A DNA stretch of 56,307 bases from an uncultured Clostridium sp. (GTDB taxonomy: Bacteria > Bacillota > Clostridia > Ch29): the NCBI GenBank assembly GCA_964529035.1, contig CAZGUG010000003.1, positions 1-56,307 of the forward strand, read 5' to 3'. The notes under the pieces were generated by a model. It saw only the letters and a program-made list of their open reading frames with translations. It searched no databases and was not told the origin of the DNA. The position numbers were made by a program, and so were the translations under genes. Positions 12,714 to 24,122 of the stretch are shown here, piece by piece (position 1 is the first letter of the stretch; every line of letters begins with the position of its first letter).

Positions 12714-12821
12714 TTACACAACCTCCTCTTAGTGGAATGGGGACACACCTTTACAACGGGTATTCCTTCTTGCGGAATGTCCCCGATTGATAGTCTTTCG
12801 GGTCAGGGGACACACCGCAAT

Positions 12822-19595: not shown

Positions 19596-20378
19596 TTGAG
19601 AAAAAGAATCTTTATTATGATGTTGATTGTAACTCTTATGTCGATCGTATTGTTTACGCAAAGCGTCCTCGGAGCAAACTATTATTCTGTCAACGGGCAA
19701 CAGGTAAAAAATACGGGTACATATGTAAAATACTATTCACTGAACAAAACAAAGGTATATACAGAAACCGGAACACAAAAAATTACATATGTATATCCTA
19801 CCGCTTCCCAGGGTGCAAACTATATCAGGGTATTTCCCAGCAGAGGAACCATAGACCGCGCACCTGCACCCACAGAACCAAAACCCGAGCCGCAGCCACC
19901 GGAACAACAACCCGAACCACAGCCGCCGGTACAGCCGGAACCCGAACCACAGCCGCCGGTACAGCCGGAACCCGAACCACAGCCGCCCCAGAATCCGGGA
20001 GGCTACCAGTTAACCTCCGACGAGCAAAAGTTAATAAACCTCATCAACGGCGAGAGAACAAAGATGGGCCTGAACCCGCTGAAAGTGGATTACGAGCTTT
20101 CCAGGGTTGCCCGGATTAAGTCTGAGGATATGAGAACAAACAACTATTTTTCTCACACATCCCCGACTTACGGTTCACCCTTCCAGATGATGAAGGACTT
20201 TGGTATAAATTATAGGGGTGCCGGGGAAAACATCGCACGAACTTCAAGCGTTGACAGGGCCCATACAGGCTTTATGAATTCGGAAGGCCACAGAAACAAT
20301 ATTCTTAACGCCAACTTCACCCATATAGGGGTTGGTATTTCAGGCAACTACTACACGGAAATGTTCATAAGCAAATAA
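19596..20378 (+). CDS. Secreted CAP/SCP-domain protein (YkwD-like) with Pro/Glu/Gln linker
   Basis: Signal peptide, PEPQPP repeats, then NYFSHTSPTYGSPF, AGENIA and MNSEGHRNNIL CAP motifs; RBS AGAGGTG with TTG start. Confidence 0.92.
   Translation: MRKRIFIMMLIVTLMSIVLFTQSVLGANYYSVNGQQVKNTGTYVKYYSLNKTKVYTETGTQKITYVYPTASQGANYIRVFPSRGTIDRAPAPTEPKPEPQPPEQQPEPQPPVQPEPEPQPPVQPEPEPQPPQNPGGYQLTSDEQKLINLINGERTKMGLNPLKVDYELSRVARIKSEDMRTNNYFSHTSPTYGSPFQMMKDFGINYRGAGENIARTSSVDRAHTGFMNSEGHRNNILNANFTHIGVGISGNYYTEMFISK
19911..19987 (+). repeat. In-frame 30-bp tandem repeat (~2.6 copies)
   Basis: Unit CCCGAACCACAGCCGCCGGTACAGCCGGAA (PEPQPPVQPE) identical at 19911 and 19941, partial at 19971. Confidence 0.95.
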
Positions 20379-20417
20379 ACGGACAGGTAACATGCCTGTC
20401 TACATATCAATAAGTTT

Positions 20418-20456
20418 AAAGGGCTGTGTTGCGGGTAAACACAGCCCTTTATTTTT
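20418..20456. terminator. Bidirectional terminator between convergent CAP and DUF3343 genes
   Basis: AAAGGGCTGTGTT/AACACAGCCCTTT 13-bp stem with flanking A/T runs. Confidence 0.8.
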
Positions 20457-20469
20457 GCTTCCATACCCT

Positions 20470-20736
20470 TTATAAAACCTTTTTATAGTCTGTGAACTGT
20501 CCCACCCGGACTGCTTTATATACGCCCTTTATCGACGCTCTGCATCCCATAATCTGGTCCCGGATGTCTTTTATTTCTATCAAATCACCCCATGCAGCCA
20601 GCGAATAATTGCAGCTTTTGCCCAGTCTTCCCGGAGTTGGTACAAGTTCAACCTTAAAGCCCCTTTCCTTAAGCCTGGCTTCTACGAAAATAGCCTGATT
20701 TCTCGAATTGAACACGAAATAATACCCGGCCGTCAT
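20470..20736 (-). CDS. DUF3343-like small protein
   Basis: YYFVFNSRNQAIFVE...LVPTPGRLGKSCNYSL pattern; ATG 20736 preferred as start. Confidence 0.7.
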   Translation of the reverse strand: MTAGYYFVFNSRNQAIFVEARLKERGFKVELVPTPGRLGKSCNYSLAAWGDLIEIKDIRDQIMGCRASIKGVYKAVRVGQFTDYKKVL

Positions 20737-20814
20737 CTCCCAAACACCCCTCACTGTTTTATTCAATATATTACTGGCAGCTGTGTTTTGGGGTGACTTC
20801 ATCTTATGATTTTT

Positions 20815-21849
20815 TTACCCGTTCAAAACCAGGCTTACTGTTTGAACTGTCCTTTTTACATCTTCTTCGGTTATATAATAATGGACTGCAAACCGCACCA
20901 CCGGCGAAGGTGTCCCGTTTATCAGTATTCCGTACGGTTTAAGCCCTTCGGCAATTTGTATTCCGTTAAGGCCGGCTGCGCTAAAGTCCACCATTATCAG
21001 GTTTGTCTGGACCTTGTCAATATCAACCGAAACCCCATCCAGCGAATTAAGGCCCCTTGCAAGAAACATCGCGTTTTCATGGTCTTCCCCAAGCCTTTTG
21101 CTCATCTTTTCCATGGCTATTATTCCGGCTGCGGCAACGATACCCGCCTGTCTCATACCGCCTCCCAGCATTTTTCTGTATTTTCTTGCTCTTTCTATGA
21201 ATTCTCCGCCGCCTGCCAGCACCGATCCTATAGGAGCGCACAGTCCCTTGGACAGGCAGACATTAACCGAATCGCAGTACCGTGCAATCTCCTCCGCCTT
21301 CACATTGAGGTAGGCGGCAGCATTGTATATGCGGGCGCCGTCAAGGTGCACCGGTATGTTATGCTTTTGTCCCACCCGGTGAATTTTTTCCATCGCTTCA
21401 ATGGGTACCACCCTTCCCCCGGCCTTATTGTGGGTGTTTTCAACGCATATCAGCTTTGTTTCGGGAAAATGTATATTTTCTGTGCGGATTTTCTCTTCCA
21501 CTGCCCGATCATCCATTACCCCGTCTGTTTCGGTAACCAGGGCAGTCTGTACTCCGGCCAGGTACGCTATTCCACCCACTTCATTGACATAAATATGGCT
21601 GTTTTCACCAAGTATTATCTCGTCGCCCCTTTTTGTATGTGTCATCACCGCAACCTGGTTTGCCATTGTACCGCTGGCGACAAACAGCGCCGCTTCCTTA
21701 CCCATCTCGCTGGCTGCCAGTTCCTCCAGCCTGTTTACGGTAGGGTCATCCCTGTATACATCATCGCCTACTTCGGCTCTGTACATGGCCTGCCGCATTT
21801 CATCGGTGGGTTTTGTTACCGTATCACTTCTAAGATCAATTACTCCCAT
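20815..21849 (-). CDS. ltaE: Low-specificity L-threonine aldolase
   Basis: IDLRSDTVT, GDDVY, ENTHN, HLDGAR, CLSKGL (PLP Lys) and LGGGMRQAG motifs. Confidence 0.96.
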   Translation of the reverse strand: MGVIDLRSDTVTKPTDEMRQAMYRAEVGDDVYRDDPTVNRLEELAASEMGKEAALFVASGTMANQVAVMTHTKRGDEIILGENSHIYVNEVGGIAYLAGVQTALVTETDGVMDDRAVEEKIRTENIHFPETKLICVENTHNKAGGRVVPIEAMEKIHRVGQKHNIPVHLDGARIYNAAAYLNVKAEEIARYCDSVNVCLSKGLCAPIGSVLAGGGEFIERARKYRKMLGGGMRQAGIVAAAGIIAMEKMSKRLGEDHENAMFLARGLNSLDGVSVDIDKVQTNLIMVDFSAAGLNGIQIAEGLKPYGILINGTPSPVVRFAVHYYITEEDVKRTVQTVSLVLNG

Positions 21850-21850
21850 T

Positions 21851-21985
21851 CTATTTCCTCCTTTTAGTGGAATGTCCCCGATTTGTACTGCCCGGTTTCA
21901 AAGTAGAAATTCTACACAGAAACAAAAAAACCTTCCCCTTAAGGAAAGGCTTAAATCCAAACTGATTCCGCGCGCTTATGTTCAC
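21851..21985 (-). pseudogene. 44-codon leader ORF whose first 9 residues resemble a Mop/TOBE N-terminus; relic or regulatory leader
   Basis: RBS AAAGAGGTG, 5 nt, GTG; reads MNISARNQFGFKPFLKGKVFLFLCRISTLKPGSTNRGHSTKRRK*; stop ends 1 nt before the ltaE ATG. Confidence 0.5.
21920..21952 (-). terminator. Intrinsic terminator inside the ltaE leader
   Basis: CCTTTCC-TTAAG-GGGAAGG stem followed by TTTTTTT on the minus strand. Confidence 0.7.
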
Positions 21986-22063
21986 AATATCACCTCTTTT
22001 TTAAATATCACGGACTTATTATATGTAACAGAGCCGAATATTAAGCATTTGCTTGATGAAAGA

Positions 22064-23035
22064 CTAAACATATTTTTGAGTTCTGCTGCTCCATTTGCCG
22101 CACCTGTCGCCCCAACAGGCTATTCCCACGCCGTCTTTAACTATCTCGACAATTTCGCACATGTTGGCGCAGCCCCTGCAGTCTATAGGCCGGACATCGA
22201 AACTGCATTCGGATACATCCAGTCCCCTGAAACCGGTACAACCCTTTTTTTGGGAATTGTCCTTCGCTATTAACGCCGCACCAATGGCTCCCATGACATC
22301 GTAGTGGGGCGGGATTTCTATCTCCATGTCCAATTCCCTTCTGAAGGCTTCCCTTATACCCCTGTTGGCCGCAACGCCTCCCTGGAACAACACGGGGGGG
22401 ATTATATCCTTACCCTTTCCCAGGTTGTTAAGATAGTTACGCACAAGGGCCCGGCACAGTCCATATACTATATCCTCGGTCCTGTGCCCCAACTGCTGTT
22501 TATGTATCATATCCGACTCGGCAAATACCGCGCACCGTCCCGCTACCCTTACCTCTGCCCTGGACTTAAGGGCCAGGTCTCCGAATTCCTCTATGGGTAT
22601 ATCAAGCCTTGCCGCCTGCCTGTCCAAAAAAGACCCGGTGCCCGCAGCACAAACGGTATTCATTGCGAAATCCGTAACGATACCGTCCCTTAACAAAATT
22701 ATTTTCGAATCCTGGCCGCCAATCTCCAATATGGTGTTTACCGCCGGGTTTACGCTTAATCCCGCTACCGCATGGGTGGTTATTTCGTTTTTGACCACGT
22801 CGGCACCCACCATGACACCGGCAAGCTTTCTTCCGCTGCCGGTGGTGCCGGCACCGTAAATCGCTATATCCCCCATTCTGTCCTTCAATGCCTTAAGCCC
22901 TTCCTGCACCACCCTTATCGGCTGTCCCATGGTACGCAGATAATCCCTGTATACCAGATTGACATTCCCATCCAGCAGTACGAGGTTAGTACTTACCGAG
23001 CCCACATCAATTCCCAGATAATAACCCTTCCCCAT
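22064..23035 (-). CDS. CoA-substrate-specific enzyme activase (BadF/BadG/BcrA/BcrD ASKHA ATPase, Fe-S)
   Basis: LGIDVGSVST, TTGSGR, EIGGQDSK, MNTVCAAGTGSFLD, RCAVFAESD and FQGGVAAN motifs; Cys-rich tail CRGCANMC...C...C. Confidence 0.9.
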   Translation of the reverse strand: MGKGYYLGIDVGSVSTNLVLLDGNVNLVYRDYLRTMGQPIRVVQEGLKALKDRMGDIAIYGAGTTGSGRKLAGVMVGADVVKNEITTHAVAGLSVNPAVNTILEIGGQDSKIILLRDGIVTDFAMNTVCAAGTGSFLDRQAARLDIPIEEFGDLALKSRAEVRVAGRCAVFAESDMIHKQQLGHRTEDIVYGLCRALVRNYLNNLGKGKDIIPPVLFQGGVAANRGIREAFRRELDMEIEIPPHYDVMGAIGAALIAKDNSQKKGCTGFRGLDVSECSFDVRPIDCRGCANMCEIVEIVKDGVGIACWGDRCGKWSSRTQKYV

Positions 23036-24122
23036 CTAAATTTTCCAACTCCTTTTTCCTTCTTATTAAGTCCACAAATGCTTCCAACCTTGTCATGTAT
23101 CCTGCTTCCCCGGTCATTTCATCCAGTACAAGGGTCATGACCGGGATTCCTTTGTTCCGGCTTACTGTCGGCAGGACACTTCTGGCCACTATCTCAGGCA
23201 TACAGGTAAAGGGCAGCAGGTGTATCACACCGTCATAACCCTTTTTGTTATATATAACGGTGTTGGCAACACTTTCCTGGCCGTGCCCCCCGACAAAACT
23301 TCTTAGATACGGGTGGGAAGCTTCTTTGATTTCCTGCTTGTTATGTAAATGCAAAGCCTCCTTGATAAGGTGATTTACCACCCAATAGCTTACCGTAATT
23401 GATTTTTCAACTTCCACCTCAAGGCTGCCCAGCTTTTCTGCGATACCAATATTTACAAAGGGCTCGATAACAGTGTAAATTTCTCCGACGATCCCAATTC
23501 GCAATACCTCTTTTTCGTTTTGTGTTTTCACATGCTCCATTTTGTTTTTGTATCTTTCAATCAATACGGCCAACTGCTTTGAACCCCTTGTATTGATCGC
23601 CTCTTCGTGAAACCTTTGCATAAGGCGTGTCACCGTACCCTTTTTTGTCTCCCGCGGTCTTGTTTGCCAGCAAAGTTTTTCGAGCTCATCCATCATTATG
23701 GACAGGCGCGTTGCCCTCTTAATTGAAGCAAGTACCTGAAAAACGCTTTTGCCGCCTGTTATCATGGATATTTTTTTCACAAAATCCCTTGCGTTACCCT
23801 GGGGTCTTTCCAGAACAATCATTTTAAAATCGTATCCAAGGTCTTCAAGTATTTCTCTCTGCACTTCCGCATAATATCCAAACCGGCAGGGGCCGCAGCC
23901 CCCTGCCATTACTATTACCTCAGCGCCCTTCTCCAGGCTTTCGATGTAATTTCCGATATTCAGTTTGAGCGGCAGGCACGCCAGTTCGGGAGAATGCTTT
24001 GTTCCAAGTTCCAGTGTCTTTTTGGTACAGGGCGGAGGTACCAGTACCTCCACCCCCAGGTCCTCCAGTACCGATTTCATTGCAATATATGCATTGCCCA
24101 TATGCGGGAATGTAACTAACAC
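23007..24122 (-). CDS. 2-hydroxyacyl-CoA dehydratase-related / DUF2229-type subunit
   Basis: VTFPHMG, PELACLPLK, GPCRFGYY, IGIVGEIY, PFTCMPE and DEMTGEAGYMTRLEAF motifs. Confidence 0.75.
   Translation of the reverse strand: MLVTFPHMGNAYIAMKSVLEDLGVEVLVPPPCTKKTLELGTKHSPELACLPLKLNIGNYIESLEKGAEVIVMAGGCGPCRFGYYAEVQREILEDLGYDFKMIVLERPQGNARDFVKKISMITGGKSVFQVLASIKRATRLSIMMDELEKLCWQTRPRETKKGTVTRLMQRFHEEAINTRGSKQLAVLIERYKNKMEHVKTQNEKEVLRIGIVGEIYTVIEPFVNIGIAEKLGSLEVEVEKSITVSYWVVNHLIKEALHLHNKQEIKEASHPYLRSFVGGHGQESVANTVIYNKKGYDGVIHLLPFTCMPEIVARSVLPTVSRNKGIPVMTLVLDEMTGEAGYMTRLEAFVDLIRRKKELENLDGEGLLSGN

Follow-up and report, generated by a model that had tools for sequence, protein, structure and literature searches.

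A 44-codon reading frame ahead of ltaE in an uncultured Clostridium is very probably the scar of a deleted mop gene

Main

The 44-codon open reading frame (ORF) that precedes the threonine aldolase gene ltaE in an uncultured Clostridium is, with high probability, the non-functional scar that remains of a 67-codon mop (molbindin/TOBE) gene after an internal deletion of 197 bp. We analysed a stretch of 56,307 nucleotides (the window) from a 2.03-Mb draft genome of 108 contigs and 97% completeness (G000). Its GTDB family comprises 11 species representatives, all of them uncultured Clostridia/Bacillota MAGs (G numbers), and closer relatives were recovered as metagenome contigs (L numbers) in a metagenome scan with ltaE. 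A sequence-only reading of the window had offered two accounts of the ORF, a deletion scar of a mop gene or a relic reused as a translation-coupled attenuator. The first is strongly supported, with an intact mop at the exact site in relatives near and far and the two flanks still recognisable. The second found no support: the terminator and the box behind it predate the deletion, the ORF of a sister allele is shorter and diverged, and the stop codon next to ltaE is confined to the window.

Layout of the locus

The strong ribosome-binding site (RBS), the GTG start and the 44-codon ORF described upstream of ltaE are all present, on the minus strand, and the ORF can be seen to cross a hairpin–T7 terminator and to stop 1 nt short of the ltaE ATG. 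The features of the locus are as follows.

22064..23035, minus strand: BcrAD/BadFG-type activase ATPase gene (PF01869 at 7.4e-48)
22018..22023, minus strand: TATAAT, predicted −10 of the former mop promoter, within GTTACATATAATAAG, a block that recurs 5′ of intact mop in L103 and G007
21991..21999, minus strand: Shine–Dalgarno (SD) sequence of the former mop, AAAGAGGTG; the RBSs of the intact mop genes in L103, G005 and G007 are its homologues
21985..21983, minus strand: GTG start of the 44-codon ORF, read from the sequence
21851..21985, minus strand: 44-codon chimeric ORF, product MNISARNQFGFKPFLKGKVFLFLCRISTLKPGSTNRGHSTKRRK, consisting of 9 mop codons and then 35 out-of-frame codons
21959..21985, minus strand: retained mop codons 1–9 (MNISARNQF), aligning to the mop starts of L103, L107, G005 and G007
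21958..21959, minus strand: deletion junction, ± 2 nt, from alignment with L103; identical in L104 and L105
21924..21952, minus strand: intrinsic terminator of the activase(-mop) unit, an 11-bp hairpin plus T7, at 15 of 15 related loci
21909..21914, minus strand: invariant TAGAAT box, probable ltaE −10, as TAGAA(T/A) at 15 of 15 loci
21869..21883, minus strand: incomplete copy, in the ltaE leader, of a small intergenic repeat (AATCGGGGACATTCC...) that occurs genome-wide, from a repeat search of the genome
20815..21849, minus strand: ltaE, low-specificity threonine aldolase of the beta-eliminating lyase family (PF01212 at 7.2e-111)

The activase gene, upstream neighbour of the scar, closes a three-gene activase / DUF2229-HGD-D module. 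Codons 1–9 of the ORF read GTG AAC ATA AGC GCG CGG AAT CAG TTT, and the 35 codons that follow are former mop 3′UTR and ltaE leader. The TAG of the ORF lies at 21853..21851, with a single nucleotide between it and the ltaE ATG at 21849, and ltaE has an SD of its own, AAGGAGG, at 21863..21857. No riboswitch, T-box or leader family was matched in Rfam across 20000–24000 (E ≤ 1). Directly 3′ of ltaE lies a gene for a Se/S-carrier-like small protein (20470–20802, minus strand; PF11823 at 1.6e-12).

An intact mop occupies the site in relatives

The activase and ltaE genes are adjacent in 10 of the 11 family genomes, and the content between them varies. G005 and G007 have a complete Mop of ~67 amino acids (MNISARNQ(I/L)NAT...SSVMIYK, then the stop codon), followed by the terminator and then ltaE; in G003, mop is truncated at its 5′ end; and in G001, G002, G006, G008, G009 and G010 there is no mop, the hairpin following directly on the activase stop. 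Contig L103 shares ~95% identity with the window across 4 kb, and its LtaE protein is 96.5% identical. It carries in order the activase gene, an RBS-GTG-mop of 67 codons, the same terminator and ltaE, and its RBS and GTG are those of the window. The L103 Mop is a TOBE protein (PF03459 at 9.7e-17), and its matches in the PDB include ModG of Azotobacter vinelandii (1H9J, 6.8e-17), Mop of Sporomusa ovata (1FR3, 1.7e-11) and Mop II of Clostridium pasteurianum (1GUG, 1e-9). The synteny comparison proposed in the sequence-only reading, which asked for an intact mop at this place in relatives, thus has a positive outcome in L103, L107, G005 and G007/L111; the order activase-mop-terminator-ltaE holds in L103, L107, G005 and G007, and the TOBE homology in relatives on which the relic account depended is present. 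Separately, L111 / G007 (C156 + C85) carries tandem-like repeats (~300 nt; GGATTCTTCA...CAGAATGACGGAGTC units) between the mop stop and the terminator, and G007 and the metagenome contig L111 differ in the copy number of this repeat 3′ of mop.

Sequence on either side of the deletion is still recognisable in the window. MNISARNQF aligns with the Mop proteins of L103, L107, G005 and G007 and with ‘KISARNVF’ of ModG; the ORF thereby shows the N-terminal M-x-ISARN motif, with which the first β-strand starts, as a remnant only. The 161 nt that follow the activase region in the window, up to and into the mop start, are 81% identical to G007, and from the hairpin onward the window matches the sequence after mop in G003, again at 81%. 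The ORF falls below the Pfam cut-off of 22.3 bits for the ~64-residue Mop/TOBE domain, and the L103 orthologue scores 61.4 bits. These alignments indicate that the likeness to Mop is real homology and not chance. Of the Mop-like start described earlier, MNISARNQF is therefore truly mop-derived; ‘KGKV’ comes from the 3′ arm of the terminator hairpin, and its likeness to Mop is a coincidence, because the same frame reads ‘...KPFRKGKVFLAL...’ in the mop 3′UTR of G003.

Compared with L103, the window lacks exactly 197 nt, namely mop codons 10–67, the stop codon and 20 nt of 3′UTR. As 197 is no multiple of three, codon 9 is joined out of frame to the old 3′UTR. Neither a TOBE search nor tblastn with the intact L103 Mop found another TOBE gene in the window’s genome. 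We also considered the relic as a copy of another locus; this was ruled out, there being no paralogue in the genome.

We propose the following course of events. An ancestral mop lay between the activase operon and ltaE, and a 197-bp deletion spared its promoter, RBS, GTG and first 9 codons, joining codon 9 out of frame to the end of the mop 3′UTR just 5′ of the terminator. By chance the fused frame is open across the terminator and on through the leader of ltaE, and a later, window-only C-to-T change made the TAG that sits a single nucleotide from the ltaE ATG. The terminator and then the TAGAAT box, which are the working elements here, predate the deletion and are independent of it. The TATAAT at 22018..22023 was probably the −10 of the former mop promoter, and since this −10 looks good and the SD is strong, with the start codon in place, the relic may still be transcribed and translated. 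Ribosomes on it would meet the terminator within the ORF, and whatever effect this had on ltaE would be a by-product, and an accidental one. We infer that the relic is without any role.

The deletion allele in sister populations

The window shares its junction, AATCAGTTTGGATTT, with L104 and L105, contigs of two separate samples whose identity to the window is ~91%. Mis-assembly of the MAG might be suspected as the source of the deletion, given that the window’s genome is a draft in 108 contigs and that the relatives are MAGs. The sharing of one junction by two independent metagenome assemblies, ~9% different from the window, shows instead that the deletion is real, and we regard the chance of an artefact as negligible.

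In L104 and L105 the ORF has 29 codons (VNISALNQFGFEPFLKGKVFLFLCRIITV, then the stop) and ends 96 nt 5′ of the ltaE ATG, still spanning the hairpin. Across these 29 codons, two of the differences from the window are synonymous (AGC/AGT, TTG/TTA), four replace an amino acid (R6L, K12E, S27I, L29V) and one is a nonsense change. The −10 box of mop is TATAAC in both contigs (TATAAT in the window), and L104 has a 43-nt repeat-element insertion 5′ of the ltaE SD. The TAG abutting the ltaE ATG arose by a substitution found only in the window, both L103 and L104 having CAG, so the ending of the ORF at the ltaE start is not a conserved property. Taken together, the changes in the L104/L105 ORF and its damaged −10 amount to decay, not conservation.

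These comparisons also bear on whether the 44-amino-acid product could function as a small protein, the deletion having given rise to a new micro-gene. Its SD and start codon are intact and it has a hydrophobic middle segment, FLKGKVFLFLC, but the only other carriers of the junction, L104 and L105, encode a different, truncated peptide. The product matched no Pfam family even at E ≤ 10, an exact-product look-up found no identical product on record, and with a terminator inside the ORF most transcripts would be without the stop codon. We consider a micro-gene extremely unlikely.

In an ltaE tree, the window groups with L103, which has an intact mop, and L104 falls outside (support 99/95). This placement means that the deletion allele is an old polymorphism, was moved by recombination or arose twice. 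In a search for a recombination tract around the junction, site patterns in the intergenic region were mixed (14 sites at which G000 agrees with L103, 9 at which G000 agrees with L104 and 16 at which L103 agrees with L104), and these counts are small; in the flanking genes, the class in which G000 agrees with L103 is clearly dominant. At the two variable sites beside the junction the window sides with L104; the numbers are too small to choose among the origins, and the pattern at these sites favours, as far as it can, a single origin of the deletion. The deletion allele coexists with the intact mop allele in one metagenome. We conclude that it is at least tolerated, persisting across ~9% nucleotide divergence between G000 and L104.

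Terminator, putative promoter and the question of attenuation

The hairpin (21952..21928) and its T7 run (21930..21924) have a folding energy of −14.3 kcal/mol (z = −2.3 against shuffles), and across 13 distinct loci the stems vary in sequence yet keep their pairing, as expected of an intrinsic terminator. The hairpin is best read, from this comparison, as the old terminator of the activase(-mop) transcript. The TAGAA(T/A) box follows 8–10 nt past the T-run at 14 of the 15 loci and 18 nt past it in G006; the sequence flanking the box is variable, and its distance to the ltaE ATG ranges from 25 to 236 nt. The module of hairpin, T-run and TAGAA(T/A) is found at 15 of 15 related loci, with or without mop, including six genomes in which no ORF crosses the hairpin. 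A simple scan between the terminator and ltaE found no sigmaA promoter and no −35 box. Judged by its conservation alone, TAGAAT is most likely the −10 of an ltaE promoter.

The TAGAAT region also fits a sigmaH-type arrangement, AGG(T)-N17-GAAT; one paper gives the sigmaH motif as AGGA / GAAT with a 17–18-nt spacer (PMC12456013). Here the 3′ arm of the hairpin and the T-run (AAGGTTT...), with the invariant GAAT 17 nt on, resemble such a promoter (21909–21952). If true, this would be a compact overlap of terminator and promoter, conserved family-wide (15 loci). A GTAGAAT-TTCTAC palindrome in the window was considered as an operator and rejected, as it is not conserved in relatives.

In E. coli pyrBI, a leader peptide is the means of a translation-coupled suppression of an intrinsic terminator. 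An exapted device of this kind would have ribosomes cross the hairpin and suppress termination, stop one nucleotide ahead of the ltaE ATG and start again there. Expression of ltaE would thereby depend on translation and on the activase/mop promoters. The window has the geometry for it, with a strong SD, a GTG, an ORF (its translation predicted) over the hairpin–T7 and a stop adjoining the ltaE ATG, and the ORF of L104/L105 likewise still spans the hairpin. However, the stop at the ltaE ATG is found in the window only, the L104/L105 ORF ending 96 nt upstream, and most substitutions in the ORF are amino-acid-changing or nonsense, with a damaged relic promoter in L104. The arrangement of ORF and terminator is not conserved, six genomes having no ORF across the hairpin and four loci a complete mop that ends before it, and the module of terminator and TAGAAT is identical in relatives without the leader ORF. 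Moreover, ltaE has its own perfect SD. The sequence-only reading had held that an ltaE promoter downstream of the terminator would speak against attenuation, and the promoter-like box 3′ of the terminator, if it is such a promoter, counts against it on that ground. Finally, a passage in one article, citing Johnson et al. 2020, places Bacillota among species with ‘runaway transcription’, in which RNA polymerase outruns the ribosomes (PMC13323073); to the extent that this passage applies here, coupling is not expected and a pyrBI-type mechanism is unlikely in principle. We therefore judge an exapted attenuator very unlikely.

The same low probability goes to a variant in which the deletion newly created a translated leader that weakens the old terminator, so that ltaE in carriers gains read-through from the activase and mop promoters. 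If true, this would be a newborn, polymorphic, translation-dependent attenuator in a Clostridia population. If the relic modulated termination, it would be a case of regulatory leaders arising from gene wreckage, and nothing here supports this. The preferred reading remains a pseudogene scar that happens to lie across an older terminator.

Repeated damage to mop

A TOBE gene occurs somewhere in 6 of the 11 family genomes. Loss of mop together with loss of molybdenum metabolism was considered and rejected, because every one of the 11 family genomes has MoaC and G000 has a ModA fragment at a contig edge. That the window’s genome keeps MoaC and the ModA fragment, with no TOBE gene elsewhere, marks mop as a dispensable accessory gene.

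A second mop deletion was found in G003 by comparison with the intact L107:

L042 (G003:C9), ~ nt 540–610: G003 mop deletion

There, a stretch of 139 nt between two ACAAAT direct repeats is missing. The deletion removed the mop promoter and ~16 codons and fused the 3′ end of the activase gene to mop codon ~17, altering the activase C-terminus from …RIDKYA to …RIGK (each before its stop codon) and leaving as remnant an open frame of 62 codons in overlap with the 3′ end of the activase gene. On comparison of these sequences, mop has been damaged repeatedly and independently at the activase–ltaE locus. The locus offers a clean, small case of accessory-gene decay in uncultured digester-type Clostridia, with mop intact, 5′-truncated, 3′-truncated or absent in close relatives.

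A small intergenic repeat in the ltaE leader

The ltaE leader also contains a member of a family of small intergenic repeats (34 hits, ~30 real copies in the 2-Mb genome), with an approximate unit of ...GAAAGCTTATCAATCGGGGACATTCC-(variable hairpin)-GGTGTGTCCCC(ATACC/TGACC). Members lie at 12722–12816 of the window and, elsewhere in the genome, at C9:29681–29830, C16:1613–1760 and C25:11126–11300; they frequently occur in tandem, and frequently adjoin the SD of the gene that follows. The copy in the ltaE leader is collapsed in the window, L104 has a full copy that is 43 nt longer, and G003 and L107 have longer sequence at the same point. The family looks REP/MITE-like, mobile or expandable.

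Comparison with known systems

With the Mop/molbindin single-TOBE proteins (PF03459), the relic shares a homologous promoter, RBS and start and the first 9 codons of the 67-aa gene. In contrast to them, it is without 58 of the 67 codons, the rest of the ORF being out-of-frame 3′UTR, so that no TOBE fold or oxyanion site is possible and there is no Pfam match.

The likeness to E. coli pyrBI is that the window, too, has a short ORF with a good SD over a terminator of hairpin and U-run, 5′ of a biosynthetic/catabolic gene. Unlike pyrBI, the arrangement in the window is not conserved and arose by an accidental deletion, the terminator is followed by a conserved promoter-like box ahead of ltaE, and no UTP-sensitive pause tract was identified at the locus. 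The host phylum further differs in having uncoupled transcription and translation, if the passage on Bacillota in PMC13323073 is taken as it stands.

Bacterial pseudogene remnants left by microhomology or illegitimate-recombination deletions offer a third comparison. Like these, the scar in the window is an internal deletion with conserved flanks and is polymorphic among co-occurring populations. Nothing essential differs, the one odd detail being a fused frame that is open across a terminator to the next start codon. For annotation, the ORF should be labelled a mop pseudogene remnant, neither a gene nor a regulatory leader. We conclude that the mop scar is an ordinary pseudogene remnant.
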